Below, one piece after another: positions 44,690-62,002 of a stretch of 64,000 bases of DNA. Every line of letters starts with the position of its first letter. Position 1 is the stretch's first letter. The notes under the pieces are model-generated. The model was given only the letters and a program-made list of their open reading frames with translations. It had not been told where the DNA came from and ran no database searches. Both the position numbers and the translations under genes were made by a program. The stretch is from a virus (taxonomy: Duplodnaviria > Heunggongvirae > Uroviricota > Caudoviricetes): IMG/VR virus record IMGVR_UViG_3300035212_002004, positions 104,100 through 168,099 of that record; one strand, written 5' to 3'.

Positions 44690-44899
44690 AATTTCTCTAT
44701 TTCTTGTTTAACTTGTTGCCAATAATCAACTGGGTGTATACCAAATGCATTTTTTTCACTTAATAAATGTGTCTTTATTATTTCATCAACTGCTATTAAT
44801 GCACATTATTTGGCCACATAAATATTTATTTTAGTATGTGCACCTGTACTTAACTTAAACTTATCAACTAATTCTACTGCTTTTTCCTTTGGTGTCATA

Positions 44900-45088
44900 C
44901 TATTCATCAATTGTTAAAAAGAATGCAATTATTGCAGACAGTATCACATACATTCTAACTATTGCCCATTGAATGTCTACCTCAAGAATACTCCATGATA
45001 TAAAACATCCTACTAAATACACTACTGCACAAAGTGCTAGAGGCATTAGTATAAACATTCCTAAGTAAATCTGTAAAAACTTTTTCAT
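44900..45088 (-). CDS. small membrane protein
   Basis: 62 aa, two TM-like segments. Confidence 0.45.
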   Translation of the reverse strand: MKKFLQIYLGMFILMPLALCAVVYLVGCFISWSILEVDIQWAIVRMYVILSAIIAFFLTIDE

Positions 45089-45291
45089 AACTTTTTAATT
45101 CTAATTGTGAATACTTTTTCTATCTTTCTCGATCCGGCCTTATCTCTTTTACTTACATATTTCATTAATGACATATGACTATTCTTTTTCTTCAATGTGA
45201 ATGTTTCTGCATCCCAATAATCACTAAAAATAATTATATATCCTATCCAATTGCAAAATTTCCAATAGAATTTACTTATAAATTTTCTCAA
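45085..45291 (-). CDS. hypothetical protein
   Basis: 68-aa ORF, ATGA overlap. Confidence 0.4.
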   Translation of the reverse strand: MRKFISKFYWKFCNWIGYIIIFSDYWDAETFTLKKKNSHMSLMKYVSKRDKAGSRKIEKVFTIRIKKL

Positions 45292-45425
45292 AGCTTTTAA
45301 TTTAAATTTTCAATAGGTAATATACGAAACGTATCTTAGAAAACCAAGCCCTCCGCCACAAGTATATATGTGGGGAGGGCAAAAAATTTTTTAAAATCTC
45401 TTTTTACGAATTTATGAAAAAATAT

Positions 45426-45656
45426 TTAATTCCACTCTTCGAAATCCCTATCTGGTTCATTTTCATACGCACCATCATCTATATCATCAACTATCATATC
45501 AAGTTGAGATTGTGCGTTCTCTAAATGGGAAATAACGTTATCTTCAATTTCCATTATTAAGTCATTATTATCCATGCCCTCTAATAGTGTGGCTAAATCT
45601 TCCATCATTAAAGATAAAGTTTTGCTTGCCATCAATAATACTTTCATCTGTTTCAT
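45426..45656 (-). CDS. hypothetical acidic protein
   Basis: 76-aa ORF. Confidence 0.45.
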   Translation of the reverse strand: MKQMKVLLMASKTLSLMMEDLATLLEGMDNNDLIMEIEDNVISHLENAQSQLDMIVDDIDDGAYENEPDRDFEEWN

Positions 45657-45783
45657 TTTGTTTTATTTTAAGTTTAGTATAAGTATATGTCTAATTGGGA
45701 AACCTGCACTTATTGTTGGTATATTTGTATATATGGGGATTTGGTGTAAAGATCGTTTTCGATCTGTAAGGTGTGGAAATTTT

Positions 45784-45868
45784 GCCATGTTCATACACGT
45801 GCCCGTCACGGACAGCAACGACGCGTGGGCATCCGGTAGTGTATCGGCATCGTTCGGTGCCGCATCGT
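45784..45868. other. GC-rich (~60% GC) structured segment in an AT-rich genome; possible small structured RNA or foreign remnant
   Basis: Palindromes CCGTcACGG and CGGCA-tcgttcgg-TGCCG. Lies in the 5' region of 45426..45656 and lacks the usual promoter box. Confidence 0.3.
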
Positions 45869-45913
45869 GAAGAAGAAAAAGGACAGAGAAAGGAGATCTA
45901 TTTCTAGATCCCC
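45869..45913 (-). terminator. rho-independent terminator (GGaGATCTA-tttc-TAGATCcCC stem + T-tract on minus strand)
   Basis: 9-bp stem with one mismatch. Minus-strand TTTCTCTGTCCTTTTTCTTCTTC follows. Confidence 0.55.
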
Positions 45914-45940
45914 ATACTCAGGTGTGTATATGGTGGGTTT

Positions 45941-46174
45941 TTAATTTAAACCCATACCTTCGTATTGAAGTAATGAATTACACACGTAGCGTTGAATGGC
46001 GTTTATATTAGTGCATTTGTTGACGTTGTTAACAATAACGTTTTTATCTATGCCATTTATACCTTTACTGGTGATAAATTCAACAATAAACGATTTAGCT
46101 TTGTTTACATCACGCATGGTGAATACTTCAACTGCAATTTGTTCAAACACCGATTTAATTTTTAAATTTTTCAT
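45941..46174 (-). CDS. hypothetical protein
   Basis: 77-aa ORF. Confidence 0.45.
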   Translation of the reverse strand: MKNLKIKSVFEQIAVEVFTMRDVNKAKSFIVEFITSKGINGIDKNVIVNNVNKCTNINAIQRYVCNSLLQYEGMGLN

Positions 46175-46230
46175 AACGTTTAATTTTAAAATTCCATTAA
46201 ATATACGAAATTAATTTTAAACCTCCAATA

Positions 46231-46467
46231 CTATATTTGAATGCTTTTTAAGGTATTACTGAGTACGGTATAAGAGGCTCCACGTTTATCTTTAATGGTA
46301 GACTTGGCCTCGCCATATTCCATTAACATACCTATTATGTTTATATTACCCGCTGTTTTAGCCTGATAAATACATCCGATTAATGGTTTAGAAGGGGGAG
46401 CAATATAGTCTTTATACTTCTTATATTCCTTAATATATTTTTTACTGGCTATAGTAGGTAATTTCAA
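46231..46467 (-). CDS. hypothetical protein
   Basis: 78-aa ORF. Confidence 0.45.
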   Translation of the reverse strand: MKLPTIASKKYIKEYKKYKDYIAPPSKPLIGCIYQAKTAGNINIIGMLMEYGEAKSTIKDKRGASYTVLSNTLKSIQI

Positions 46468-46488
46468 TACAATGATTTTATTAATTAG

Positions 46489-46520
46489 GAGGGGAGTTAA
46501 CTCTTAACCCCCCTCACCCA
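46489..46520 (-). terminator. GC-rich stem-loop (GGGGaGTTAA-ctc-TTAACcCCCC)
   Basis: Immediately downstream of 46529..46921 stop. Confidence 0.4.
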
Positions 46521-46528
46521 CTATATTA

Positions 46529-46921
46529 TTACTCTGCTTTCGGTGCGGCTGGTCTACCTCTTTTAAGTGTACCCGCGGCGCGTCTTGCTTCCAATTCCAC
46601 TTTGCGTTTGTATGCGGCGCTTTCAGGATTTGGTTTTCTACCTAATGGCAGTGTACCCATTAGTGATAATCTAATTTGTCTGTTACTATCTTCAACAATT
46701 GGGCGACCACGTCTCAATTCACCTGATGCCCTTCTAGCCTCTAATTCTTGTAGGCGTAACTGACGATTACTTGAAGCATTCACCGGGCGACCTTTTCTAA
46801 CTGTTACACCATGTGTTGCGGCTAGTAGTGATTCCAAATAATCTGTCTTGCATTGGTGGGCTGGTTTCTCAGTTGCTAACCCTAATTCTTTTACTTTTGC
46901 AATAATTTCAATTCTGTTCAT
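46529..46921 (-). CDS. DNA-binding protein: Rho_N/HeH-like N-terminal motif + two AT-hook (R/KGRP) repeats; GC-elevated gene
   Basis: RIEIIAKVKELGL... HeH-like. Internal repeat LQELEARRASGELRRGRPI / KVELEARRAAGTLKRGRPA. Gene GC visibly higher than flanks. Confidence 0.55.
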   Translation of the reverse strand: MNRIEIIAKVKELGLATEKPAHQCKTDYLESLLAATHGVTVRKGRPVNASSNRQLRLQELEARRASGELRRGRPIVEDSNRQIRLSLMGTLPLGRKPNPESAAYKRKVELEARRAAGTLKRGRPAAPKAE

Positions 46922-47199
46922 AACATTTTACTTTTTTAATTAAACTTAATTTTTTAACTTAATAACACTTAAATATACGAAATAATTTTTAATGAGCCAA
47001 GCCGTGTTTAAAAATCGTTTTTAATCATTTCATTTATTTTATGTCTTAACTCCCTTAACATTACACTTGTTAAAGTGGTTCTGTCAAATTGTGCTTCGTG
47101 TAGGTGGTTTATTAATTCCCTTATCACAATAAATTTTTCATTTACTAATTGATTTTCTTTAGCCATTTCTAACTCTGTCATAACATAATATTTTTAAAA

Positions 47200-47415
47200 T
47201 TATACTGAAATATACGAAATTATAATTGGATTGCCAAGCAATGTATATACTTTTTTATTAGTGAAAGGAACGGACTCATGACTGAACAAAAGTGCCCATA
47301 CCTGCCTTGGTAGTTCACCCGACCCATCTAGTGTTTCCACATGCGTCACCCCATTTTTCACCCCCATTACCCCTAATACACCTTCGGAATCCATATTAGA
47401 GGTGGGGATGTACAT
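47200..47415 (-). CDS. hypothetical protein (GC-elevated)
   Basis: 71-aa ORF. Confidence 0.4.
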   Translation of the reverse strand: MYIPTSNMDSEGVLGVMGVKNGVTHVETLDGSGELPRQVWALLFSHESVPFTNKKVYTLLGNPIIISYISV

Positions 47416-47576
47416 TATACAACCTTAGGTAATTTCACCTTATTCACCACTTTATCAATAGCATTTTTGATATCTAATACCTCGTCCACCATCATTTTAG
47501 TAGTGTCATACCCTAGTTTTTGTAACATTTCATCAATAATCATTACTTTATCTATCAACCCTAATTCTGTTTTCAT
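47415..47576 (-). CDS. small hypothetical protein (53 aa), not in ORF track
   Basis: ATG 47576 preceded by promoter box. Stop overlaps next ATG (TAATG). Confidence 0.45.
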   Translation of the reverse strand: MKTELGLIDKVMIIDEMLQKLGYDTTKMMVDEVLDIKNAIDKVVNKVKLPKVV

Positions 47577-47715
47577 AACACATATTATTTAACTTATTAA
47601 TACTTAAATATACGAATTATTATTTTACTCTCCTAACACACTCGTCGGGGAGTTATTTGTGTTTTGTCCCCGACGTCACTTGTGTTATCGCTGATATTAA
47701 TTTTCTTGTTTTGTA

Positions 47716-48015
47716 TTATGCAACTAACACTTTTGGTTCATTGAACCATATTATATCAACACTTCCTTCTCTCCAATTATCACTAATCATTACCCCATCT
47801 AATAGGTTATGTTCTTCATGGTTCATGTTATACCACTTCGAGATATAATTATATTTTTCTCCACATGCAAATCCTATTGGTTCACCCCCACACATACTCC
47901 CTATTCTATAACCCATTTCTCTCAATTGTTTCTCAGCTTCATAATGTGAACTAAATGTACCTTCTACTTTCACATTCACACTTTTAACTACTTCTCTACC
48001 TAAATACTTTTCCAT
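47716..48015 (-). CDS. hypothetical protein
   Basis: 99-aa ORF preceded by promoter box. Confidence 0.5.
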   Translation of the reverse strand: MEKYLGREVVKSVNVKVEGTFSSHYEAEKQLREMGYRIGSMCGGEPIGFACGEKYNYISKWYNMNHEEHNLLDGVMISDNWREGSVDIIWFNEPKVLVA

Positions 48016-48033
48016 AACATAATATTTTTTAAA

Positions 48034-48053
48034 TTTATACTTAAATATACGAA
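48034..48053 (-). promoter_or_regulatory. representative copy of the recurrent promoter-like box (minus strand TTCGTATATTTAAGTATAAA; -10-like TATAAT/TATAAA ~17 nt before ATG)
   Basis: One of ~30 copies between 45.3 and 62 kb, e.g. near 46969, 47603, 48339, 48722, 49057, 49481, 50005, 50183, 50722, 51382, 52195, 52723, 53026, 53703, 53940, 54777, 55505, 56567, 57221, 58565, 58950, 59915, 61418, 61960. Each sits 35-45 nt upstream of a minus-strand ATG. Confidence 0.6.
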
Positions 48054-48158
48054 TTAATTTTTAACAGTCCTAATATTAATCCATCAAAGCTATACAAGCT
48101 CCTAAACCTACTACAATTACTATACCTGCTATAAATCCTATTATCATAATATATGTTT

Positions 48159-48314
48159 TTAAAGTACGTTAAGGAATTTAGATAAAATCACTACCCAAAC
48201 AAAACAAATAATTGCAACTGCATAGGGGCCAAATTCAGTTGATAATCTAAGAGATGTGATTGAATTGATCAACCAGATGAAGAAGAACTTGATGTTTCTT
48301 AATGACTTTTTCAT
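48159..48314 (-). CDS. small membrane protein (51 aa), not in ORF track
   Basis: ATG 48314 preceded by promoter box. Hydrophobic. Confidence 0.4.
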   Translation of the reverse strand: MKKSLRNIKFFFIWLINSITSLRLSTEFGPYAVAIICFVWVVILSKFLNVL

Positions 48315-48482
48315 AACATTTTATTTTTAAATTTATACTTAAATATACGAAATAAATTTAATACATCCTAATACCCTATTTAACTGGATTTAGTAAGGTC
48401 ATACATGAATACAGCCCAAGCAGTTATTATTACTACCTTTAGAATATTAGCCCATTGTTGTTGTGATATCTTTCTCATATTT

Positions 48483-48698
48483 CTATTCTTGTACATCACA
48501 TATACCTTGTGATAGGATATAATCATATAAACAATCCATTTTTCTTTCAAACGATAGATTAATTATATAACTTTGTATTATATGACTTTGTTTCAAGAAC
48601 TCAGTAATAACATTATCATCTAATAGAGACAAGTCAACATGACCATAATTCTCTCTAAAATACATTCTAACATCTTCAACTGTTTGATCTAATTTCAT
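48483..48698 (-). CDS. hypothetical protein
   Basis: 71-aa ORF with promoter box. Confidence 0.5.
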   Translation of the reverse strand: MKLDQTVEDVRMYFRENYGHVDLSLLDDNVITEFLKQSHIIQSYIINLSFERKMDCLYDYILSQGICDVQE

Positions 48699-48770
48699 AA
48701 CACTTTATTTTTTAAAATTATACTTAAATATACGAATAAAAAATTAAGGGGCCTAATACATGGCCCCTTT
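48696..48770 (-). repeat. promoter + stem-loop intergenic cassette, copy A (near-identical to 49029..49102)
   Basis: ~75-nt near-identical repeat including the AAGGGGCC-n8-GGCCCCTT hairpin and promoter box. Confidence 0.7.
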
Positions 48771-48773
48771 AAA

Positions 48774-49031
48774 TTAATCTTCAAATACTATTAAATCTTC
48801 AAATTTGTATTTAACAGTCACTTTCTTGTTCATTACAAATGTGAATCCGGTAAAACCTACTCTACCTATTTTTGATACATTTGCATGATGTCTTGAATAT
48901 ATTACTATGTCATCAATAGACGATCTACTTTCTTTCATGATACATTCATCATATTTAAAAGTTTCAGCTCCTTTATAATCTATTCCTTTCACTTTAAACG
49001 ATACTCCTGATTCAAATTGCTCTTTTGTCAT
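48774..49031 (-). CDS. hypothetical protein
   Basis: 85-aa ORF. Confidence 0.5.
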   Translation of the reverse strand: MTKEQFESGVSFKVKGIDYKGAETFKYDECIMKESRSSIDDIVIYSRHHANVSKIGRVGFTGFTFVMNKKVTVKYKFEDLIVFED

Positions 49032-49102
49032 AACACTTTATTTTTTAAAATTATACTTAAATATACGAATAAAAAATTAAGGGGCCTAATACAAGGCCCC
49101 TT
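49029..49102 (-). repeat. promoter + stem-loop intergenic cassette, copy B
   Basis: Differs from copy A by one loop base. Confidence 0.7.
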
Positions 49103-49108
49103 ATTTAA

Positions 49109-49456
49109 TTACTCATTATCTTCATCTTCCTCTAATGGTTCAAAAGCTTCTGTTAAACTATTCTCAATACAATCTCTAATTACATCAAAATTGATTGGAA
49201 CATCTGTCACTTCAATTCTTTTATCATAATTTAATTCAAACTCAACATCATCAAAACAAATAATATTGTTTCTACACGTTGATTCTTCTTCAATTGCCTC
49301 TACAATACTTTGAGCAATCTCTCTCAATTGAGTGACTGATAATTTAGGCTTCACTTGTTCTTCTTCAATCTTCTCTATAAGATTGACTACTTGTTCTGCT
49401 GAATAGAATCCAGGCATTTGATCTCTTAATAAATCAATCGTTTGCGATTTTGTCAT
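49109..49456 (-). CDS. hypothetical acidic protein
   Basis: 115-aa ORF. Confidence 0.5.
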   Translation of the reverse strand: MTKSQTIDLLRDQMPGFYSAEQVVNLIEKIEEEQVKPKLSVTQLREIAQSIVEAIEEESTCRNNIICFDDVEFELNYDKRIEVTDVPINFDVIRDCIENSLTEAFEPLEEDEDNE

Positions 49457-49522
49457 AACATTTTATTTTTTAAAATTATACTTAAATATACGAATTTTAT
49501 TTTAATAAACCTAATACACTAT

Positions 49523-49819
49523 TTATCTACTTTTTACAGACTCAATTGCTTCATGACCTGAATTAATCATTGCAATTACTCCTCCCCACATATTCTCATC
49601 AGCTTCCCATTCAATATCATGAGGCTTATGTTTCATTCCCCAATTACTTAATGCGAATCCGTTACCACTCATTTTGAAGTCACCTTCTTCATTTTTCTTA
49701 AAAGTAATGTAATGGATATTATCACACATACTCGCTACTGTTTTGAAAATTACTTCTCTTGCACCTTCTTTAATAACTAATTTAGGTGGATTTACTCTTA
49801 ATTCAACATACTTGCTCAT
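49523..49819 (-). CDS. hypothetical protein
   Basis: 98-aa ORF. Confidence 0.5.
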   Translation of the reverse strand: MSKYVELRVNPPKLVIKEGAREVIFKTVASMCDNIHYITFKKNEEGDFKMSGNGFALSNWGMKHKPHDIEWEADENMWGGVIAMINSGHEAIESVKSR

Positions 49820-49840
49820 AACATTTATTTTTTAATAAGC

Positions 49841-49975
49841 TTAATACTGGTAACATTTTAATAATCTTTTCATTACTTGATATTCAGTCATGTTTGGATA
49901 TAATACCCTCCAACTATTTCTTATACGTTGTATATGTACTCTAGTTTCGAAATGTGCTCTTGACTCTACTTTCAT
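49841..49975 (-). CDS. small hypothetical protein (44 aa), not in ORF track
   Basis: ATG 49975 with promoter box upstream. Confidence 0.35.
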   Translation of the reverse strand: MKVESRAHFETRVHIQRIRNSWRVLYPNMTEYQVMKRLLKCYQY

Positions 49976-50033
49976 AATATATTTTTTTAATTACCCTTAA
50001 ATATACGAAATAAAATTTAATAAACCTAATATA

Positions 50034-50153
50034 AATTTAATTTCTCCCCCAACGTTTCATAGAATGTTTAGTTGAAGATGGTTTATGATTACAATGGTTA
50101 GAGGCACAATTAACTAATATTAAACTTACCAAAATTATAATTAATACTTTCAT
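50034..50153 (-). CDS. small secreted/lipoprotein-like peptide (39 aa: MKVLIIILVSLILVNC...), not in ORF track
   Basis: Signal-peptide-like N-terminus ending in Cys. Promoter box upstream. Confidence 0.35.
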
Positions 50154-50289
50154 AATATTTTATTTTTTAAAATTATACTTAAATATACGAATTTTATTTT
50201 AATGAACCTAATCAATGTAAATAGCCCCTTTACGGGGCCATTCACGAGTATAATTAAAAAATATAATTGGTTATGAAACAATTATGTTG

Positions 50290-50478
50290 TTAATACTTGG
50301 CGCAATTCTTTCCATCTGCACTTCTGTATAAGGTGTATACTAACGCCTCTTTTAATTCTGTTACCTTACAATCCTTCATATTCCAGCCTCTTTCCTTAAC
50401 ATCTTTAAATAATGTTTCAGTTGTAGTTCTGATTTGATTGAATTTATCTATGGTTGTATTTATTACTTGTAATGTCAT
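50290..50478 (-). CDS. hypothetical protein
   Basis: 62-aa ORF. Confidence 0.4.
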   Translation of the reverse strand: MTLQVINTTIDKFNQIRTTTETLFKDVKERGWNMKDCKVTELKEALVYTLYRSADGKNCAKY

Positions 50479-50492
50479 AATTATGTTTAGTT

Positions 50493-50696
50493 TTAGTTGA
50501 ATAATTTATTTCCCATCTCCATGAATTTTGTGAATTCCTCTACACCCATCTCTTTAATAAGACTTGTGTTTAATATATGATACTGCTTATTTAATTCATT
50601 TCTCTCTTCTTGAGATTCATATTCCTTATTGTTAATTTTCCAATTAACATCTAATAAATCACTAAATAATTCTCTTGCTTTATCTGTTTTAAACAT
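50493..50696 (-). CDS. hypothetical protein
   Basis: 67-aa ORF with promoter box. Confidence 0.45.
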   Translation of the reverse strand: MFKTDKARELFSDLLDVNWKINNKEYESQEERNELNKQYHILNTSLIKEMGVEEFTKFMEMGNKLFN

Positions 50697-50866
50697 AACA
50701 ATATATTTTAAATTAATAATACTTAAATATACGAATTTTATTTTTATAATCCTAATACTCTATTTAAAAATAAAAATTACCCTTCTGGAGCTTCACCAGC
50801 CTTCTAGTATACTTATACCTCTCAGCTAAGAGTCAGTACGAGCTTTTTACTTTGGATAATTTTTAG

Positions 50867-50925
50867 TGGAGTGAGAGGAATCGAACCTCTTGCCTAAACA
50901 GTCTTGCCGTAATCGAACCACTCCA
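50867..50925 (-). ncRNA. 59-nt tRNA-like element: perfect 7-bp acceptor stem + canonical T-arm (AGAGG-TTCGATT-CCTCT), no recognisable D or anticodon arm
   Basis: Hand-folded. 28 nt between acceptor and T-arm contain a GGCAAGA direct repeat, not an anticodon hairpin. Confidence 0.35.
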
Positions 50926-50971
50926 GGACCTGCAGATCCAAATAATAATGACTACCAAAATTATTATTTTG

Positions 50972-51056
50972 ATGTTGTGACAGGATTCGAACCTGCATCT
51001 TTATGTCGCCCAGTATTTGTACTTACAACTTGCGTCTACCATTCCGCCACACAACA
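50972..51056 (-). tRNA. 85-nt type-II-length tRNA-like gene (acceptor, D-arm GCG-GAATGGTAGA-CGC and T-arm GCAGG-TTCGAAT-CCTGT canonical; anticodon arm not resolved by eye)
   Basis: D-arm resembles bacterial tRNA-Leu/Tyr/Ser class. Variable-arm hairpin CAT-aaag-ATG. Anticodon stem could not be paired. Confidence 0.5.
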
Positions 51057-51097
51057 AACTACATTCTAGGAATGCAAGAGAATATATAACAATTATT

Positions 51098-51358
51098 TTA
51101 AAAACATGATTGTATGATATCATCATGCCAATACCCAATATCATCATTTATAATTTCTAATTGAGCTTCAGTCATTTCCACTCCATCATAATCAGCACTT
51201 TCAATATAAGCGTCACAAAAATCTGGGTAATCATCAAAATCAATTCCACCAAATATTATATTATCAATTAAACTGTAATCCAAATCCAATTCTTCAGATT
51301 CAGGAAAGTTATCAGGATTATTTGAATTGAAATTATTATCATTATAAGTGTCTAACAT
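51098..51358 (-). CDS. hypothetical very acidic protein
   Basis: 86-aa ORF. Confidence 0.5.
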   Translation of the reverse strand: MLDTYNDNNFNSNNPDNFPESEELDLDYSLIDNIIFGGIDFDDYPDFCDAYIESADYDGVEMTEAQLEIINDDIGYWHDDIIQSCF

Positions 51359-51403
51359 AATACTATTTTTAAATTAATAATACTTAAATATACGAAATAA
51401 AAT

Positions 51404-52171
51404 TTAATAATTATAACCTTTTTTAATTTTAGAATAATCTCTTGAATCAAAAAGATTAGTTACATCTTTTATTTTACCATTTGATAATAAATCTATTAAC
51501 TGATACTTGATAAATTCTGCATCTTGGGCTAAACTACATTCAATATAATTTGAAATCCTTCCATCCCATGAATTCTGTATTAGGAACTCATCTGTGAATT
51601 CAAAACTATGTTGACCTGTTTCATTATTATAGGAAGCTGAACTATAGTTTAATTCATCTATTTTAGAAAGTAAGAACATGTAAGACATAAAAGAAGGACT
51701 TCCTATTACGTACCAACTATCTCCATCATTAAATGCTCTATACTGTATTCTTTGGATAGCTCTAAACATCTCACCTATCTCTGTTTTGCAAGGTCCTGAT
51801 TTAGGTATGTTATCTTCTTCAAATTTTTTAGTTAATGCTTTCAATTCATCTGAAACTTTGAACTTAGGTTCATATATATTATGACCACCCCTTAGACCTA
51901 TACTACCTCCTGATAATCTTTTATACTCTCTATGAATATATTCATCCATAGTTAGTGATATATATTCAGAAATATCAACTAAACCTGCTTGCTGTCCATT
52001 CCATTCAATACGTACTCCTGCTCTTTTAGCAATCATTAATTCTAACGAATCCTTACCCTTACCACCCCAGTTACCATCTTGAAAATAGAAATTTTGTAGA
52101 TCTAAATCTTTTAAATCTTGAACAACTCTTAGAGCAAATCTTAGTTTTGTAATATTTGATACTTGTGTCAT
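51404..52171 (-). CDS. hypothetical protein
   Basis: 255-aa ORF with promoter box. Confidence 0.55.
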   Translation of the reverse strand: MTQVSNITKLRFALRVVQDLKDLDLQNFYFQDGNWGGKGKDSLELMIAKRAGVRIEWNGQQAGLVDISEYISLTMDEYIHREYKRLSGGSIGLRGGHNIYEPKFKVSDELKALTKKFEEDNIPKSGPCKTEIGEMFRAIQRIQYRAFNDGDSWYVIGSPSFMSYMFLLSKIDELNYSSASYNNETGQHSFEFTDEFLIQNSWDGRISNYIECSLAQDAEFIKYQLIDLLSNGKIKDVTNLFDSRDYSKIKKGYNY

Positions 52172-52393
52172 AACCTTTATTTTTTAAATTATACTTAAAT
52201 ATACGAATTAAAAATTATAAAGCCAAATTAATATTCATCATCGTAACCTAATTCATAATCGAACTCATCCTCAATTACATCAAAATCTTTAATTAAAGCA
52301 TCTATATCTTCATCTTTAATAATTTTATAAACATCAGGTTCTTGTTCTGTGTCTAATTTGTCCCAAACCGATTTTACTTGTTTAGCCATTGTT

Positions 52394-52603: not shown

Positions 52604-52760
52604 ATCTATTTATTTTTGTTTAAATATTCAATTAATTCTTGTGATAAAACACCTCCAGCATACATTAACCATAATTCTGCTAATCTTTCTTTTGACATAA
52701 CATTTTATTTAAAATTATACTTAAATATACGAAATTAATCTATAAAATCAAATACCTTTA

Positions 52761-54752: not shown

Positions 54753-54796
54753 AACCTTTATTTTTTAAATTATACTTAAATATACGAATTTAAAAT

Positions 54797-55195: not shown

Positions 55196-55213
55196 AACTT
55201 ATTTACTTTTAAA

Positions 55214-55480
55214 TTAACATCCATCACAATTAGAAGCATCATCTCCACATGCCCCACAATAAGTGACCTTACTATCTTCTAATTCTTCTCTTTCTTCAAA
55301 CATATACCTAACCTCATCTATTGGTTGAGACATTACTAATTGTCTTAACATTTGATCATGCATTCCTACCTGTTCAAGTATATATTGCATTGTCTCCCCA
55401 TCTACCCCTATATGAGATAGATCTGAAATTATTCTTTCTACTTTATCTCTTACTCTTAAATCTTGCATTTGTGATGTCAT
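55214..55480 (-). CDS. hypothetical protein with C-terminal Cys cluster (CGACGDDASNCDGC)
   Basis: 88-aa ORF. Confidence 0.45.
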   Translation of the reverse strand: MTSQMQDLRVRDKVERIISDLSHIGVDGETMQYILEQVGMHDQMLRQLVMSQPIDEVRYMFEEREELEDSKVTYCGACGDDASNCDGC

Positions 55481-55744
55481 AACACTTATTATTTAAAATT
55501 ATACTGAAATATACGAAATTTTATTTTACAAGCCTAACAAACTAAATAAGGACCCTTATTAGAGTCCTTTTTATTGTGTTTTTCTTTACGTTCATACTTT
55601 TTCTTATTCTTTTGAACAGTATGTCGTGACGCGGCCCAAATTTCTTGCATTGTGAATTGCACTACTTTCATTTTCATATATTAATTATTTTAACATAAAT
55701 ATACGAAGGCTCCCTATGGGAGCCTAGTACCTTATTAAAACCTA

Positions 55745-56542
55745 TTATGCTGCTATATACTCTTCAGCAATTGCCCATAACTTTTGATTCATATCAACGT
55801 CCTGTGTGAAGTTTTTAACGGCTCTTGACTTTCTTAACTTACCCTTAGCATTTAAGTAACCGAACCCACCACTTGTTAATTTCTCTTGAACTCTATTTAA
55901 TACAACCCAAACTGAATTACCTTCATCAGCTTTTCGTTCTGCTATTAATAGATTCTTAATTTCCTCATCAGGTATTTGTTTTTCCTCCCCGAATCTAGCT
56001 TCAACAGCTTTGAGAGCAAAATCATGTTGTTGTTCAGGTGTCATTTCGACTTGTGAGAATTTGTTAAGATTTGCCACCATTGTTGGCAGTGTGTTCACTA
56101 ACTCGCCAATATAATTGCGTAAATCCTCAAATGAGTAACCCATATGTCTCATTTTAAATCCTCCAAAGTCTTCAGATTTAATAACTAACCCATTTGAACA
56201 TACTAATCTAAATACTCCCATTTCAAACCTAACCGCTGTTGAGCCATCATGTGAGTTGATTAATAATAAACTTGGATACATATCAGCTTTACCTTCCTCA
56301 TTGTTAATTACAATTTCAGGATTAAAAAACTGAATTAAATGTTTTGCAGTTGCAGACGTTTTCTTTCGGGTCTTAACTGTCTTAACATCATATGGTAACC
56401 ATCCTAATGCTTCCATATCATCAACTATAGTGTCAGTTGGGATATGTACATACTTGTTAGTTAAATTCTCACTAACAACGTGATTGAATACTTGAGGTGC
56501 TAACGTGGTTAATTCCTCTCTTGATAACGCTTTTAAACTCAT
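55745..56542 (-). CDS. DUF932-like phage/plasmid-related protein
   Basis: SLLLINSHDGSTAVRFEMGVFRLVCSNG resembles the DUF932 core. 265 aa. Confidence 0.4.
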   Translation of the reverse strand: MSLKALSREELTTLAPQVFNHVVSENLTNKYVHIPTDTIVDDMEALGWLPYDVKTVKTRKKTSATAKHLIQFFNPEIVINNEEGKADMYPSLLLINSHDGSTAVRFEMGVFRLVCSNGLVIKSEDFGGFKMRHMGYSFEDLRNYIGELVNTLPTMVANLNKFSQVEMTPEQQHDFALKAVEARFGEEKQIPDEEIKNLLIAERKADEGNSVWVVLNRVQEKLTSGGFGYLNAKGKLRKSRAVKNFTQDVDMNQKLWAIAEEYIAA

Positions 56543-56916
56543 AACATTTACTTTTTTTAATTAATAATACTTAAATATACGAATTAAAAATTATAAAGCC
56601 TATTTTCTATTAAAAAGTCTTTTAAAGAAACTGGCTTTTGCCTCTACAGATTCTACAGGTGTACTTACTACTGATTCTAGATACTCTGTTGTACACATGT
56701 GTGCGGGTCTAACTGTTTTGATGTTTAATCCCTTTACCTCTTTAATAAGTTGTTGTCTTCTAGTCATAATTATTTTACTCCGTTTTGTTTATAATGATCC
56801 GCTTTGGAAAATTTCGTTGTTGATAATTCTTTCTTAACTTTAGGTTGATTTAAAGTTGGTAACCACTCAATTAATGATTGGTAATTCTTTTTAGCACTGT
56901 TTTTACTCATCTTTAT

Positions 56917-57237
56917 TTATTTATTAATTATATATTCTATTATTTCATAATTTAACCAATTTAAAGGAATCAAAACAGGGCCTTCAGTACAACTATGTGT
57001 TCCATAAAATCCCATAGTCATTGAATCGGGATCTTCATCTAATTGTTTAGTTCGAACAAGGGTTTTTGAGGATTTTCCTATTATTTGCCCTACATAAAAT
57101 TTCCATTCACCCCCAAATTCAATTTTATTTTGTTCAAATAATTTAGTCATCATTTGTACACCCAATTCATTTAATCCTTTATTTACAACCTTTTTCATAA
57201 CATTTTGTTTAAAATAATACTTAAATATACGAATCAT
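56917..57237 (-). CDS. hypothetical protein
   Basis: 106-aa ORF. Confidence 0.5.
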   Translation of the reverse strand: MIRIFKYYFKQNVMKKVVNKGLNELGVQMMTKLFEQNKIEFGGEWKFYVGQIIGKSSKTLVRTKQLDEDPDSMTMGFYGTHSCTEGPVLIPLNWLNYEIIEYIINK

Positions 57238-57240
57238 ATT

Positions 57241-58368
57241 TTACATATCCAAACGATCTATTTGAATGACTTTAGGAAATCGTAATGAACCGTCAGTTGT
57301 TTTCTCAAAATATTTAACAGTTGCTAACTTACCTATTAATTGGTCTTTAATAGCCCATATCTCTTCTAAATACTCCATTGTTCCATTAATAGTTGAGTCA
57401 AATTTAACTCCCTCTAGTGTTTGAAATGACATAGTAGCGGCTTTGTTAGCAAACTTACCTACTCCTTCATTAACTGATAGTATTTTGAACTCATCATCAT
57501 GGAACGTTTTATGTTTTAATAAACCATTGGAACGTTTATTTTCATATAACGAATTTGGGTCTCTTAATATTTGACCTTCAAATCCTTGTCCAATATAATG
57601 ACTTAATTGTTCATCTACATGTTTTGCATCAGGTAATTCATAAGTTGCAATTACTTTATAAATAAATGGATCTAAATTAAATTCTCGTTTTAAATCAAAT
57701 AAATTTTCACATCTCCCTTCATAACCATAATCAACTTCATTAGGATCTAACATATCATACATCCAATATTCAATATATTGAGCAGATAAATCTAAATCAG
57801 CTTGTGTTGGTTTAGTTTTTCTAACACATGAAATAATAGTGTTAAAATCAACGTCCCTATTTGAAGTATACAATTCACCGTCTAATACTAGGTCCGGTTG
57901 AGTATCGAAGATATGCTTTAAATTTTCATACACATGCGGTGCAGATATAATCTCTTTACCATTTCTAGTCCACATCCCATCAGATTTGACTACACATCTA
58001 ATACCATCTAGTTTAGGTTGTGATAGGATTGGAAATTTAACCTTATCTTTACGTTTATCATAATCCTGTGCCAACATTGGTGCAAAAAATACTTTCTTAT
58101 CACAATCATTAATATCCTCCCAATAACCTAAATCTTTACGTTTTTGCCATAAAGCAACCGCTTCTGATGATACTTGCTCTTCAGCTGTAGTAGCATTCTT
58201 TTTACCTATATTTTTAGGTTCACATCTTGTCCAGTCACCTGTAAATTGTTTCATATTAACAAATCCTGTTGTAGTTCTAAAACTGTCACCATCAACTTCA
58301 ATTTGCCATTGATTGATATGTTCTTTACTATTAGAACGTTTATATAATGTTGGGAATAATTTTACCAT
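57241..58368 (-). CDS. ATP-dependent DNA ligase
   Basis: Motif I KLDGIRC (KxDG). Motif III VLDGELY. Motif IV EGQILRD. Motif V LLKHK. 375 aa, T7/T4-type size. Confidence 0.8.
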   Translation of the reverse strand: MVKLFPTLYKRSNSKEHINQWQIEVDGDSFRTTTGFVNMKQFTGDWTRCEPKNIGKKNATTAEEQVSSEAVALWQKRKDLGYWEDINDCDKKVFFAPMLAQDYDKRKDKVKFPILSQPKLDGIRCVVKSDGMWTRNGKEIISAPHVYENLKHIFDTQPDLVLDGELYTSNRDVDFNTIISCVRKTKPTQADLDLSAQYIEYWMYDMLDPNEVDYGYEGRCENLFDLKREFNLDPFIYKVIATYELPDAKHVDEQLSHYIGQGFEGQILRDPNSLYENKRSNGLLKHKTFHDDEFKILSVNEGVGKFANKAATMSFQTLEGVKFDSTINGTMEYLEEIWAIKDQLIGKLATVKYFEKTTDGSLRFPKVIQIDRLDM

Positions 58369-58758
58369 AACCTTTCTTCTATTAATTCGTCTATTTGTTG
58401 TTTACAATCTTCAATACTACTGCCAGTACCTCCGGGTTCATCACAATCATTTGTATTATAAAATACATATTTTACACTTTCAAGGTGTAAATAATTATAA
58501 TCATTTATTAATATATCATAACCTTTATAATTTAACATAATACTATTTTTTAAATTAATAATACTTAAATATACGAATTAAAAATTATAAAACCAAATCA
58601 TTTTCAACTATCTCAAATCTTCTTCCATCTATGTTATTTGTACCATATATGTAAGCCAAGTTATAATCTACAAAACTTTGAATATCATTCTGAAAGATTT
58701 CATAACTATCAAAGTAAAAAGGAATAACGGTGTAAATTTTCATATTATATATTTTAAA

Positions 58759-58941
58759 TTAATCTATATTCATCACCCCTACAATCTCAGTATATTTAGT
58801 ATCCACTAATTCTTTTCTAATTTCCTTAATCTGTTTTATGTTTTCTGCTCCTACCTTTTTAATGGCTGTTTGAACGTTAACATAAAGTGATGGATGAGTT
58901 TTTCCTGTCTTTAACACTACTTGGTAATAATTTCCTATCAT
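58759..58941 (-). CDS. hypothetical protein
   Basis: 60-aa ORF. Confidence 0.4.
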   Translation of the reverse strand: MIGNYYQVVLKTGKTHPSLYVNVQTAIKKVGAENIKQIKEIRKELVDTKYTEIVGVMNID

Positions 58942-59012
58942 ATTTTTCTTTTATACTTAAATATACGAAAAAAGGCTTGAGTTACCAAGCCTTTAATCAA
59001 ATATTTTAATTA

Positions 59013-59870
59013 TTAATTTCTATTTAAAAGTATTCCTGCTGTTGAACCAAATACATTGTGAGATCCATAAGGTGAAACACCTTGCTCAGCCCACTTTCTT
59101 TCAGTTTCGGCTTTATATAATTCAAGTAACTTAGGCTGTGATAAGATTTCTTTTGTCTTAGCATCATACTGTGCGGCTTCATAGTTACCTTTAGCTAATG
59201 CTACTTTCTTCAATGCTGTTTGCTCAGCTTGCTTTGTTTGAGATATAATAGTTGCTGTCTCTTGTAGTACTGCAATCTTTCTTTCTATAGCTGCTTTATA
59301 AGATGCTGGTAATGCCATTTTAAGAATTGCAATATTGTTTAATGTGAATCCTTCCTTCTCTAATGCTACATTTAAGGTCTTAGTTACATTAGCTTCGTAC
59401 ACATTCCTATGCTGTAGTAGACTATCTGATGCAAAACTTACAGCATTATCTAATAACTCTTTTCTAACTATAGTTCTTACTCTTGAATTTATTAAATCTT
59501 CCATATCAACTCTATACTTTATAAATAAATCAGCTGCTCTTGCCCTCTGCAATTGTAAGTTAATGGAAACATCTAATCCAAATGTAGCTCCATCTGCTGA
59601 TGTTACGTCAATATGTTCATCTGTTGGAGAGTCTTCGTTTGAATCTGCTGTCCATACCTTATGTTGAACTGATGTTGGATACATGAATACATCCTGTGTT
59701 GGTGGGAAATAGAAAATAAATCCACTTGCCATTTCAATGTTGGGAACTCCTTTATTGGTTCCAATTTGATCTACTACTAATGCTACTTCTGCTGAGTCGG
59801 CAATTTTACATGACCCTGCTAATCCTAACACTACTAAGATTCCTGCTACTGCTACTAAAATTCTGTTCAT
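59013..59870 (-). CDS. SPFH/band-7 (prohibitin/HflK-C-like) domain lipoprotein
   Basis: Signal peptide with lipobox-like LAGSC. EVALVVDQIGTNKGVPNIEMASGFIFYFP SPFH-like core, followed by Ala/Lys/Glu-rich coiled coil. Confidence 0.55.
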   Translation of the reverse strand: MNRILVAVAGILVVLGLAGSCKIADSAEVALVVDQIGTNKGVPNIEMASGFIFYFPPTQDVFMYPTSVQHKVWTADSNEDSPTDEHIDVTSADGATFGLDVSINLQLQRARAADLFIKYRVDMEDLINSRVRTIVRKELLDNAVSFASDSLLQHRNVYEANVTKTLNVALEKEGFTLNNIAILKMALPASYKAAIERKIAVLQETATIISQTKQAEQTALKKVALAKGNYEAAQYDAKTKEILSQPKLLELYKAETERKWAEQGVSPYGSHNVFGSTAGILLNRN

Positions 59871-59948
59871 AACTACTTTTGTTTAAATTGATTTAATTGT
59901 TTATTTTTATTAATAATACTTAAATATACGAAATTTATTTTGGAAAGC

Positions 59949-60314
59949 CTAATCTAAGCCTAACTTTTTTCTCCTCCAATCAGTCTTTACTCCTGTTGCA
60001 AACATTGCATCAATTCTAGGTTTTGATTTACTCCAGGCCGGAATTGCTCCTACATACTCTATAGTATATGGGAAAACTAATCGAATTATTTGAGGAGACC
60101 TTTCAATACTCTTCTTTACATTTGCTGAGTAGTTAGGATCTATTCTATGGGAGTACTCTGAGTGATATACTGAAAATTGATTTCCTAATTTATCTAAATA
60201 CTCTGCTGTGAGTTGGTCATTTAATATACCATCATTCTCTGATAAAAATATTCTTATTACTATTAAAAATATAAGTAATAATACTGCTAAAATTATTGTT
60301 AAAAATATAATCAT
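59949..60314 (-). CDS. membrane protein (N-terminal TM), possible NfeD-like partner of SPFH protein
   Basis: Strongly hydrophobic first 25 residues. Operonic with the SPFH gene. NfeD assignment is speculative. Confidence 0.4.
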   Translation of the reverse strand: MIIFLTIILAVLLLIFLIVIRIFLSENDGILNDQLTAEYLDKLGNQFSVYHSEYSHRIDPNYSANVKKSIERSPQIIRLVFPYTIEYVGAIPAWSKSKPRIDAMFATGVKTDWRRKKLGLD

Positions 60315-60598
60315 AATTCTTCTTGTTTATCTTGTTTAATTTTTTTCTCTCTGTTCTCTTGAACCAGCTTTGATACATTTTGTGCAAAGTTGTGTGCACA
60401 TAGAAAAATTGTTCCTATTATAAAAATTGTTAGCAATACTCCAGTTGTGAATGAAACACTACTTGGTTGATTCATTAAATGTGTTCCCACATCTATTAAT
60501 TGGAAAGATACAATCCATCCTATAAAATACCCAATTGCCTTTAAAATTGTTCTTGTCTTCATCTTATTTACTATTTGATGTTTTAAATAATATTCCAA
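60311..60598 (-). CDS. small integral membrane protein (two TM segments)
   Basis: 95-aa ORF, ATGA overlap with 59949..60314. Confidence 0.45.
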   Translation of the reverse strand: MEYYLKHQIVNKMKTRTILKAIGYFIGWIVSFQLIDVGTHLMNQPSSVSFTTGVLLTIFIIGTIFLCAHNFAQNVSKLVQENREKKIKQDKQEEL

Positions 60599-60778
60599 AT
60601 AAGAGATTGATTCCTAATGCTTGCCAAAACCCTATTAGGTGTACTCCATCCACGGCTTTAACTAAAGCGTTGTTCCAAAGTAATTATGTTGGTAAAGCTA
60701 ATATAATAGCTCCTACCGTAATTAATACCATTGCTGCTAATACTGCTCCTAATTTTTCCATTTTACTTGTTTTAATTA

Positions 60779-61393
60779 TTAATAAATTGTTCCTGATGAA
60801 TTTATATTTAAACTAATATCACTATCCATTGTATTGGATAATATTTTTCTAACATGCAAATCTGGATTAGTTATAACTGAATTACATCTATCAATTGCTG
60901 ATTGGGCCTTGTCTAATAATTCTTGTTTCATTTTTTGAAAACCTAATTCAAGCAATTCTGGTAACTCCAAAGCACAATCACCCCATCTAGCTATTAAGAA
61001 TCTATTTAGATTCCATGTATAGCCTTTTTCTTTATCTTGTTCTGATTTCCAATTCCAACCTATTAACATAGGATCAGGATCAACATCATTATACCAGATA
61101 TGAAAACCATCAAACATTTTATTGTCCTTAGCGAATTTGTACACTTTAAGTACCTCTAATGGTATAGTTGATTTAACATACTTGTCAGCATCTACTTTCA
61201 TAGGACAAACAGCTTTTAGTTGCTTTTCCATAGCATTGTTTAAACTAATATAAACATTTGGTACATTTTGTTCCTCAACGTTTTGAGTTGTTGCGAACCC
61301 TAATTCAAGTGCTAAGTCATTATACTCAGCTAATTGATCTTCATCTAAAATCAGAGCTTCATTTTCAGGCTCACGATAAATTTTTACTTCCAT
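60779..61393 (-). CDS. hypothetical protein
   Basis: 204-aa ORF with promoter box. Confidence 0.5.
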   Translation of the reverse strand: MEVKIYREPENEALILDEDQLAEYNDLALELGFATTQNVEEQNVPNVYISLNNAMEKQLKAVCPMKVDADKYVKSTIPLEVLKVYKFAKDNKMFDGFHIWYNDVDPDPMLIGWNWKSEQDKEKGYTWNLNRFLIARWGDCALELPELLELGFQKMKQELLDKAQSAIDRCNSVITNPDLHVRKILSNTMDSDISLNINSSGTIY

Positions 61394-61434
61394 AACATTT
61401 ACTATTTTTAATTAATAATACTTAAATATACGAA

Positions 61435-61704
61435 TTAATCTCCAGGTCTCCTAATACTTTTAAAATTAAAACTCGCAATTTTATCTAATTCAACTAATGA
61501 GATATCTGCTTTTTTATTAGTTCCATAATGATAAACATTACCCTCATATAGATCCCCATTTAATCGTCTTTTACCATTAAATGAACGAAACTCACGTGAC
61601 GTTACACGGTACCAATTATTCAAATTAGGCATATAAATTTCCAAATTAGAGGCAGTATTAAAATCATATTTGATTTTCTCGGTATTACCTGTTTTCTCTG
61701 CCAT
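61435..61704 (-). CDS. hypothetical protein
   Basis: 89-aa ORF. Confidence 0.45.
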   Translation of the reverse strand: MAEKTGNTEKIKYDFNTASNLEIYMPNLNNWYRVTSREFRSFNGKRRLNGDLYEGNVYHYGTNKKADISLVELDKIASFNFKSIRRPGD

Positions 61705-62002
61705 TTTTACGTTTTTCGAATGCTAATTCTTCCTTAAGTAACCTAATTTCCTCCAATAATTTAGCTATTACTAAATCCTTTTGCCCTAATAATTTATATA
61801 TCAGTTCCATCTTTATCTTCTATTACTAAATACCTCATTGTTTCAGTTTGTTTTAGAGTACCAATTTTTTCAAGTTCTAATACTTCTCTATGATGGCCAT
61901 TCATCATTAATGCTAAGGTACATTCCATATATATTACTTTCATAACCTTTAATTTTATACTTAAATATACGAAAGGCTCCTTACGGAACCTAACTTATTT
62001 AA

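Follow-up and report, generated by a model that had tools for sequence, protein, structure and literature searches.

A repeated cassette in the small-gene array of an immuto-related phage probably reads as a Bacteroidota sigma-A-type promoter

We analysed a 64,000-nucleotide (nt) window of the viral record IMGVR_UViG_3300035212_002004, which represents only part of the genome of that phage and in which all genes lie on the minus strand. From 44.9 to 62 kilobases (kb) this window, by which we mean the whole stretch of DNA under study, is tiled by 47 minus-strand open reading frames (ORFs) with a mean length of 98.9 amino acids (aa) and a median of 76 aa; 35 of the 47 are shorter than 100 aa and 14 are shorter than 60 aa, in agreement with an earlier note on this DNA, made from the sequence alone, that had described about 50 genes averaging under 100 aa. 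A 20-nt element, hereafter the box, is repeated along this array in front of the small genes, and the box together with its conserved flanks, hereafter the cassette, is the subject of this report.

Pfam domains were found in only three of the 47 array ORFs (DNA ligase, DUF932 and SPFH/Band-7), which bears out the view that the content is almost wholly uncharacterised, and about seven have a PHROG match, mostly to families of unknown function. The six small ORFs that the earlier note regarded as missed all exist, two of them with coordinates shifted by 3-9 nt (50037-50153 and 55534-55677). Where relatives cover them, the tiny ORFs are kept as proteins: ORFs of 46-47 aa are retained at 98-100% identity, and 55534-55677 (47 aa) is 98% identical in L054 (L-numbers such as L054, L066 and L003 designate comparison loci, of which L054, L003, L073 and L079 are IMG/VR contigs; the prefix w marks a position in the window). 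Because their protein sequence is conserved in the relatives that cover them, the tiny ORFs are, on this comparative evidence, real genes.

The window belongs to a novel relative of Flavobacterium phage vB_FspM_immuto (hereafter immuto; NC_055915, L233), a 160 kb phage of Flavobacterium sp. LMO8 and the nearest cultured relative, with which a baseplate protein of the window is 49% identical over its full length. Immuto encodes T4-like gp20 and gp23, and the window codes for gp6/gp25-like baseplate wedge proteins, a DNA ligase, pieces of primase and polymerase-exonuclease and several homing endonucleases; in our best explanation, the phage is probably a novel immuto-like, distantly T4-like myovirus of Flavobacteriia, and the array is probably its hyperplastic early-gene region. 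L054 is a close relative whose shared ORFs have 63-98% aa identity to those of the window, and for the stretch from 44.7 to 53 kb no close comparator was present among the loci compared. Megablast of the array region against GenBank phages gave no match, nor did blastn of a single cassette against phages, for which low-complexity masking is the probable reason.

The box is a 20-mer, TTCGTATATTTAAGTATWAT, and we defined a strict copy as one with at most three mismatches. The window contains 28 strict copies, compared with 0.16 expected by chance, and all 28 are on the minus (coding) strand, confirming the roughly 30 minus-strand copies reported before; 26 lie within 46962-61973 and two lie outside the array, at 7413 and 8661. 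The box array is real and strongly non-random. Every strict 20-mer is followed 8-42 nt (median 18) further 3' by an ATG-initiated ORF in RTTATG context, as expected from the previously noted ATG some 17 nt after the box in a conserved setting. The claim that every gene of the region sits behind the same box went too far, since only 26 of the 47 array ORFs have a strict box of their own. At least seven degenerate boxes are present in addition; a position-weight scan combined with direct reading identified those at 55688-55707, 46190-46209, 45309-45328, 6270-6289, 10387-10404 and 11938-11951, and degenerate boxes retain the TWGG...TATATT half of the element.

Alignment of the 28 strict copies revealed a second conserved block, TTWGG, located 16-20 nt 5' of the box and absent from the search pattern. 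Counted from the box, T-19 is present in 28/28 copies, G-17 in 26/28 and G-16 in 27/28, a conservation that was overlooked when the box was described as having no -35 element. The whole element can be written as TTWGG-N15-TTCG-TATATTTA-AGTATWAT, in which TATATTTA occupies box positions 5-12, C3, G4, G14, T15 and T17 are further invariant box positions, and TATWAT stands at positions 15-20 in 20/28 copies. The string TATATTTA[AG]GTAT occurs 23 times on the coding strand of the window and not once on the opposite strand, with about 0.1 expected. In four cassettes a TAG at -19..-17 from the box doubles as the stop codon of the upstream gene.

Since the phage clade infects Bacteroidota, we read the box in the frame of the Bacteroidota primary sigma factor, which uses a -33 TTTG and a -7 TAnnTTTG element and not -35/-10 hexamers (PMC7366714, PMC6847099; see also Bayley 2000; Vingadassalom 2005; PMC9723704). 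The -7 element TAnnTTTG of mapped Flavobacterium promoters spans -12..-5 (PMC9723704), and the F. johnsoniae promoter is characterised by T-12, A-11, T-8, T-7, T-6 and G-5, the last described as 'nearly invariant' (PMC6847099). TATATTTA agrees with TAnnTTTG at 7/8 positions, the mismatch falling at -5. With TATATTTA set at -12..-5, the G of TTWG falls exactly at -33 and the predicted transcription start lies at about box position 17, inside the TATAAT-like hexamer; the triplet at -33 is TAG in 16/28 strict boxes and TTG in 10/28. The 20-nt spacer of the cassette equals in length that of the holB promoter mapped in F. psychrophilum (TTG-N20-TATATTTG), and a TTCn extension is also present in host promoters such as those of tRNA-Cys (TTTCTTATATTTGCA) and rnr (TTATTCGTAAATTTCA). 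The predicted leader has a median length of 22 nt, compared with a typical host 5' untranslated region of 24 bp (PMC9723704). Translation in F. johnsoniae is determined by a purine at -3 and A at -6, -12 and -13 (PMC6847099); in the predicted leaders, the purine at -3 is present in 28/28, A-6 in 23/28, A-12 in 26/28 and A-13 in 24/28, and a Shine-Dalgarno-like 4-mer in 0/28. A full canonical host-type promoter, TTG-N20-TATATTTG, is present in the window just once, at 21100-21135 (minus strand), 5' of 20137-21069.

Immuto, which we reached through protein similarity and thus independently of the motif, carries about 28 copies of a corresponding element, aGTTGc-N15-TTCnTATATTTAGGTAT-caataattaaaaca...RTTATG. 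Almost all of these copies are on the coding strand, and they cluster in the syntenic small-gene run that DUF932 and T5orf172 delimit. Common to the two genomes are TTG/TWG at -35..-33 (TTG in all immuto copies), TTC, TATATTTA and GTAT, and box positions 4 and 13 vary in immuto. At the position of the window's TATWAT, the immuto copies have TATCAA in 14/23 cases and TATAGA in 4/23, and hence TATWAT is not conserved as a -10 element. From the motif and its geometry, we consider that the box is probably a Bacteroidota sigma-A -33/-7 promoter that would be read by host RNA polymerase carrying sigma-A. The earlier note had offered the host primary-sigma consensus as a fallback, and this came closer, the fit extending to TTWG at -33 as well as to the -7 element and failing at the A found throughout at -5.

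The features of the array, the copies outside it and the adjoining hairpins are listed below; "would drive" denotes the gene that the box is predicted to serve.

45309..61991, minus strand, whole array: about 47 small ORFs with 26 strict and three degenerate cassettes in a single orientation
61954..61973, minus strand, box with one mismatch: adjoins hairpin 61974-61991; would drive 61794-61943 (49 aa)
61415..61434, minus strand, box: would drive 60779-61393 (204 aa)
59913..59932, minus strand, box: would drive the SPFH/Band-7 gene 59013-59870 with a leader of 46 nt
58950..58969, minus strand, box: L054 homology restarts at its 3' end (w58951)
58558..58577, minus strand, box: 58-aa ORF downstream, replaced in L054 by an unrelated 46-aa ORF
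57214..57233, minus strand, box: overlaps the 3' end of the ligase gene; L054 homology ends at its 3' end (w57213)
56564..56583, minus strand, box: would drive the DUF932 gene 55745-56542; the upstream ORF has its stop codon in the TAG at -19..-17
55498..55517, minus strand, box: would drive 55214-55480 (88 aa; missing from L066)
54769..54788, minus strand, box: matches two L054 boxes that bracket an extra 379-nt cassette
53935..53954, minus strand, box: strict copy with hairpin 53978-53998 upstream
53701..53720, minus strand, box: strict copy
53022..53041, minus strand, box: strict copy
52714..52733, minus strand, box: strict copy
52188..52207, minus strand, box: would drive 51404-52171 (255 aa)
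51377..51396, minus strand, box: would drive 51098-51358 and the tRNA-like genes downstream
50716..50735, minus strand, box: strict copy
50172..50191, minus strand, box: would drive 50037-50153 (38 aa)
49990..50009, minus strand, box with two mismatches: would drive 49841-49975 (44 aa)
49475..49494, minus strand, box: strict copy
49050..49069, minus strand, box: a 66-nt exact repeat is common to it and cassette 48736, at a distance of 333 nt and with one 85-aa ORF between
48717..48736, minus strand, box: partner of box 49069
48332..48351, minus strand, box: would drive 48159-48314 (51 aa), whose homologue in the extra L054 cassette is 47% identical
48034..48053, minus strand, box: strict copy
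47597..47616, minus strand, box: would drive 47415-47576 (53 aa)
47199..47218, minus strand, box: strict copy
46962..46981, minus strand, box: would drive the AT-hook-repeat ORF 46529-46921 with a leader of 44 nt
55688..55707, minus strand, degenerate box (TAGG-N15-TTCGTATATTTATGTTAAAA): adjoins hairpin 55707-55725, 5' of the 47-aa ORF 55534-55677
46190..46209, minus strand, degenerate box: within the array
45309..45328, minus strand, degenerate box: 3' of hairpin 45348-45380
8661..8680, minus strand, box outside the array: would drive the AAA ATPase gene 7466-8641
7413..7432, minus strand, box outside the array: 3' of hairpin 7441-7459; would drive 6291-7394
6270..6289, minus strand, degenerate box: TTTGG and TATATTTA kept, TTCG and AAGTAT lost; would drive the HNH endonuclease gene 5073-6251
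10387..10404, minus strand, degenerate box: immediately 3' of hairpin 10405-10421 (GGCTCC..GGAGCC)
11938..11951, minus strand, degenerate box: immediately 3' of hairpin 11952-11968
58971..58994, minus strand, terminator-like hairpin AAAGGCTTGG..CAAGCCTTT: family also found 5' of the box in many IMG/VR contigs
49078..49103, minus strand, terminator-like hairpin GGGGCC..GGCCCC with T-run: includes the -33 TTAGG
48746..48769, minus strand, terminator-like hairpin GGGGCC..GGCCCC with T-run
53978..53998, minus strand, hairpin: 23 nt 5' of box 53954
55548..55569, minus strand, hairpin: 30 nt 5' of box 55517
50221..50241, minus strand, hairpin: 5' of box 50191
47643..47675, minus strand, hairpin with a 15-nt loop: 5' of box 47616
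57241..58368, minus strand, ATP-dependent DNA ligase gene: within the array
50971..51056, minus strand, tRNA-like gene of 85 nt: within the array

GC-rich hairpins were said to precede most boxes. All four of the hairpin families named then exist, but with a hairpin defined as at least 5 bp, including at least three GC pairs, no more than 60 nt upstream of a box, only 9/28 strict boxes (32%) have one, compared with 10% of random positions; several degenerate boxes also adjoin hairpins. The array region contains 15 terminator-like sites where 5.4 were expected. In the Rfam scan only one match, to a tRNA-like sequence, was obtained, and no known RNA family was found for the hairpins or for the GC-rich islands of the array.

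The proposed cassette would thus be ordered, from 5' to 3', as a GC-rich stem-loop with T-run that would end the upstream transcript (in about one third of copies), TTWG(G) with its G at -33, a 20-nt AT-rich spacer with TTCG at its end, TATATTTA at -12..-5 as the '-7' element, AGTAT with the predicted start (at about box position 17), an A-rich leader of 18-25 nt lacking a Shine-Dalgarno sequence, and RTTATG. Host RNA polymerase with the Bacteroidota primary sigma would fire these boxes immediately on infection, yielding many short, partly read-through transcription units of one to three small genes each. In L003, L073 and L079 the box is followed by the conserved sequence aagaaagataaatCACCTACTACrTAAC and not by a start codon, and this replacement suggests that the cassette may also drive a non-coding RNA.

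Comparison with relatives reveals rearrangements along the array. Relative to L054, about 8/26 window ORFs are replaced or absent, and several of the breakpoints coincide exactly with box ends. Where homology stops at w57213, the 3' end of box 57233, the ORF behind the box is of 93 aa in one genome and an unrelated 73 aa in the other; homology resumes at w58951, the 3' end of box 58969, and the 1.6-kb window-specific block before w58951 carries the SPFH gene and two boxes. Outside the cassette of box 61973, at a distance of 4 nt, a further replacement starts. L054 in turn has an extra unit of 379 nt with two flanking boxes, both aligning to the single window box 54788, and the 50-aa ORF of this unit has its 47%-identical homologue behind another box of the window (48159-48314). 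L066, the other close relative compared, has the [box, 47-aa ORF] unit and the [box, DUF932] unit in exchanged places and lacks the 88-aa ORF; the junctions lie inside boxes. L054 lacks an insertion of 873 nt at 62281-63154, a mobile-endonuclease indel without box association in which a GIY-YIG homing endonuclease (62261-62827) and a 66-aa ORF are encoded.

The cassettes are direct repeats in the same orientation, with exact identities of 17-66 nt and a spacing of 182-1502 nt, and as such would provide portable homology for recombination, by which genes, each with its own promoter, could be inserted, deleted, replaced and permuted, a role also proposed for the early-promoter stem-loops of T4-type phages discussed below. 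Weighing against this is the abundance of the boxes themselves: they are present at 26/47 gene junctions (55%) and only about 12 events were seen, so that a breakpoint at a box is statistically inseparable from one at a gene boundary, and we make no statistical claim of a preference for boxes over other junctions. In our best explanation, the cassettes probably double as recombination modules.

The 17-mer core of the box is also found in bacterial chromosomes. Bacterial genomes contain exact matches in 114 stretches, of which about 60% are from Bacteroidota. Among evaluable sites, which are partly orthologues or insertion sequence copies and so not fully independent, the 17-mer is intergenic at 39/48 in Bacteroidota and 16/44 elsewhere (p=1.6e-5), in promoter position at 18/48 and 7/44, respectively (p=0.03), and inside long ORFs at 28/44 of the non-Bacteroidota sites. 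The Bacteroidota genes behind it encode a SusC-like TonB-dependent receptor, a type IX secretion system cargo protein, an L,D-transpeptidase (YkuD), a DUF2007 protein in six Lacinutrix genomes and an insertion sequence transposase. A multi-copy insertion sequence with a DDE_Tnp_1_3 transposase in Epilithonimonas, Chryseobacterium and Flavobacterium (L150, L154, L169, L191, L193, L221, L224, L226, L227), often at contig ends, has TTTG-N16-TTCGTATATTTAAGTAT 5' of the transposase gene, in the same geometry as the phage cassette. The possibility that the multi-copy Epilithonimonas/Chryseobacterium element is an rRNA promoter was rejected, as no rRNA lies downstream and the insertion sequence with its DDE transposase was found instead.

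Several observations weigh against a plain host promoter. A replaces G-5 in every copy of both the window and immuto, and in the F. psychrophilum table of transcription start sites TATATTTG occurs 103 times and TATATTTA 22 times, most of the 22 not at -7. Flavobacterium siphovirus 11b, which is unrelated, has the canonical TGTATATTTG upstream of genes at five places, two of them immediately 3' of terminator hairpins, implying that the A-variant is a lineage trait and not the host optimum. The window shows no enrichment of the canonical TAHHTTTG (35 compared with about 29), TAG stands in place of TTG at the -33 triplet of 16/28 copies, and the conservation of TTCG and AAGTAT goes beyond the known needs of sigma-A. 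All 17 IMG/VR loci with at least two exact 17-mers have genes in common with the immuto-like lineage, by which a multi-copy box in unrelated phage types was rejected and a shared phage factor becomes possible. As judged from these genomes, it is the immuto-like lineage that is marked by the A-variant and its TTCG and RGTAT flanks, and the fixed departure at -5 is the most interesting loose end of the analysis.

These observations can be accommodated if the box represents a class of promoter specific to the phage, middle-type or otherwise dependent on a factor, that resembles a sigma-A promoter but is deliberately off-consensus at -5. The factor could be an activator, a sigma-appropriation factor, an injected modifier of RNA polymerase like T4 Alt or a binder of AT-rich DNA; alternatively, the conserved flanks could be an operator for the shut-off of early transcription. 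The A at -5 is fixed in about 30 and 28 copies of two diverged genomes whose host prefers G, with phage 11b, of another lineage, having the G; the invariant C3, G4, G14, T15 and T17 lie outside the known sigma-A consensus; and the multi-copy boxes are restricted to one related phage lineage. An AT-hook-repeat protein encoded in the array is kept in at least seven box-bearing contigs, and a DksA-like protein lies behind an immuto box. Yet the -33/-7 geometry is an exact sigma-A fit, the exact 17-mer stands 5' of ordinary Bacteroidota chromosomal genes, and at least one mapped host sigma-A promoter, that of THC0290_0071 in F. psychrophilum, has TATATTTA as its -7 box. Positions 4 and 13 are variable in immuto, the AT-hook protein was not found in the 150 kb of immuto examined, and upstream of the small genes we saw no other class of promoter to act as the true early ones. 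Among the matches listed for the 108 window ORFs (the best 25 families in two scans), there was no sigma, MotA, AsiA or RNA polymerase domain. We regard a phage-specific class of this kind as possible but doubtful, and the more specific proposal, that the fixed change of G(-5) to A and the invariant TTCG/RGTAT mark a lineage-specific class needing or switched by a phage protein, as unlikely; the AT-hook-repeat protein (46529-46921) and the DksA-like protein of immuto would be the candidate factors. Were it true, this would be the first described system of sigma appropriation or promoter reprogramming for Bacteroidota RNA polymerase.

The anatomy proposed in the earlier note, a sigma-70-type TATAAT -10 with no -35 and an activator site, TTCGTATA, near -28 in the manner of MotA, draws on the TATWAT of most window copies and on the lack of a conserved -35 hexamer 17 nt 5' of it. 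It fails on the host, as the Bacteroidota sigma-A does not use -35/-10 elements, and on immuto, where the hexamer is TATCAA or TATAGA in 18/23 copies; it also leaves the conserved TTWGG at -33 unexplained. The position profile contains no TGCTT-type MotA box, no MotA or AsiA homologue is among the matches listed, and a generic sigma-70 scan was not enriched in the region (113 compared with 126 expected), on which this frame was dropped as extremely improbable. The repeats might instead be mainly selfish or recombinational DNA, mobile or gene-converted, their conservation reflecting recent spread and concerted evolution. The long exact identities between copies (66, 47 and 42 nt), the genome-specific flavour of the leader (TTTAAAAAATAAA in the window and CAATAATTAAAACA in immuto) and the rearrangement junctions inside boxes would fit such an origin. 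However, 28/28 boxes are co-directional with the genes, the start codon follows at a fixed distance and the leader is tuned for translation; the positions conserved across lineages are exactly the sigma-A -33 and -7 elements while others drift, degenerate copies keep the TWGG...TATATT half, and neither terminal inverted repeats nor an associated transposase accompany the repeats. As the main account of the array, selfish DNA is very unlikely; as a secondary property, it is compatible with a host-read sigma-A promoter.

The DksA-like protein of immuto is encoded at 60988-61395, directly behind a box, and is annotated as 'DnaK suppressor protein'. DksA-type proteins bind the secondary channel of RNA polymerase, and the immuto protein is a possible phage modulator of host transcription. 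The AT-hook-repeat ORF of the window (46529-46921, minus strand; 130 aa) has an N-terminal domain of about 35 aa followed by tandem repeats of about 28 aa with an RGRP AT-hook-like core (RKGRP, RRGRP, KRGRP). Its homologues in the other box-bearing viral contigs are 35-53% identical with 3-5 repeats, and its N-terminal domain recurs in the 55-aa ORF 56600-56767 (minus strand). Judged by these repeats, the protein is a candidate binder of AT-rich DNA.

Several neighbouring features of the window lie apart from the cassettes. The tRNA-like gene at 50971-51056 scores 40.4 bits against Rfam tRNA, with no anticodon assignable by ARAGORN, and its region from D-arm to T-arm is 30 nt, compared with 17 in the model consensus; more T-loop-like GGTTCGATTCC sequences follow downstream at about 50780-50960. 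By their similarity to tRNA, these may be degenerate or unusual tRNAs. GC-rich islands at 45700-45940 and 47220-47415, amid 28% GC, contain no convincing ORF and have no Rfam match, and a 71-aa ORF at 47200-47415 has no homologue; the islands may be non-coding RNAs or remnants. A second motif, ATATTTAT(A/T), stands 10-30 nt 5' of the start codon in 11/18 box-less genes, with sites upstream of structural and replication genes in 1-44000 (40690-40698, 37559-37567, 34761-34769, 27735-27743, 19366-19374, 17089-17097, 4367-4375 and 2843-2851) and at 62831-62839. It is on the coding strand in 17/25 cases, none of these inside the small-gene array and one 5' of the GIY-YIG endonuclease gene; its total in the window is not above chance (25 compared with 22), and it is a possible late promoter class. 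No PHROG match at E<=0.001 was obtained for an 1870-aa ORF of the baseplate/tail module (27761-33373, minus strand).

The baseplate protein of Microcystis phage Mel-JY01 (L234, PP395634.1), whose labelled host is a cyanobacterium, is 48.7% identical to that of the window. This phage bears Bacteroidota-type elements, TTG-N16-TTCGTATATTTG (about 180-216), which in the portion examined has the canonical G at -5, and tattagTATATTTGtct just 5' of an ATG (38500-38526). The portion examined is the structural module, in which there is no cassette array. The host assignment of Mel-JY01 may merit re-examination.

The cassette is of interest beyond this phage. The 17-mer with its flanks forms a compact, strong-looking expression unit, with an optimised leader that lacks a Shine-Dalgarno sequence, which could serve the genetics of Flavobacteriia, for which genetic tools are, to our knowledge, scarce; the motif could also be a cheap marker of host clade for uncultured viral contigs. 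The one-base departure from the host consensus poses a sharp question about phage control of Bacteroidota RNA polymerase, a subject on which we know of almost nothing.

Among known systems, the promoter part of the cassette is closest to Bacteroidota sigma-ABfr promoters, sharing TA..TTT at -12..-6, TTWG G at -33, the 20-nt spacer, the TTCn extension and a leader close in length to the host 5' untranslated region. It differs from them in the A at -5 of every copy, in TAG for TTG in 16/28 copies, in the invariant TTCG and AAGTAT and in a -33 element that is far better conserved. In T4 MotA middle promoters and the middle-promoter stem-loops (PmSLs) of phage nt-1, a conserved element likewise lies 5' of an AT-rich hexamer in a T4-like early/middle region; unlike these, the cassette has no TGCTT box, its hexamer is not conserved in immuto and the host sigma is of a different type, and the MotA-like arrangement once suggested is not supported. 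The Bacteroides phage promoter P_BfP1E6, which according to the account cited in 10.1101/2025.03.18.644028 is strong in uninfected cells, is a Bacteroidota-phage promoter read strongly by host RNA polymerase without infection, a likeness drawn from its description only; it belongs to another phage and host genus and in that account is not described as a multi-copy recombinogenic array. The terminator-plus-TGTATATTTG units of Flavobacterium phage 11b also place a hairpin and T-run directly before a -7 element 5' of phage genes, but have the canonical G at -5, number about five, and have neither the extended 17-mer nor a small-gene array.

The likeness extends furthest to the early-promoter stem-loops (PeSLs) of T4-type phages, in which a stem-loop just 5' of a host-type early promoter is followed by a Shine-Dalgarno sequence and start codon, and which occur in hyperplastic regions where close relatives differ by indels, replacements and displacements, with mini-circles excised between tandem copies (PMC4122927). 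In the literature searched, cassettes of this kind were not described for any Bacteroidota phage. As in PeSLs (Arbiol et al. 2010, PMC2839356; Comeau et al. 2014, PMC4122927), the order is [stem-loop], host-type early promoter and translation start, the copies cluster amid small ORFans (44/47 array ORFs have no Pfam domain), same-orientation repeats adjoin insertions, deletions, replacements and displacements between close relatives, and degraded 'half' copies are present; the 66-nt exact repeat with copies 333 nt apart would be a candidate substrate for mini-circle excision. Unlike PeSLs, the promoter is of the Bacteroidota -33/-7 type and not sigma-70 -35/-10, being host-type only by analogy, its -7 element has a fixed non-consensus base, the leader is A-rich, Kozak-like and without a Shine-Dalgarno sequence, the stem-loop is on only about one third of copies, and the phage, as an immuto-like myovirus of Flavobacteriia, stands far from the Tevenvirinae on which PeSLs were defined. 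What stands of the PeSL-like cassettes first proposed for this region is the hyperplastic setting and the junctions at boxes in L054 and L066; because the promoter is not sigma-70, the Shine-Dalgarno sequence is absent and most copies lack a stem-loop, the array is not PeSL by strict membership and is, by analogy, a PeSL analogue on a different promoter chassis. The PeSL idea, of portable promoter-terminator units by which accessory genes are both expressed and shuffled, would in this way be carried over from T4-type phages that infect Proteobacteria to Flavobacteriia phages of a widespread environmental lineage, and as the host promoter and translation-start grammar is wholly different there, the principle of the portable cassette is suggested to be general.

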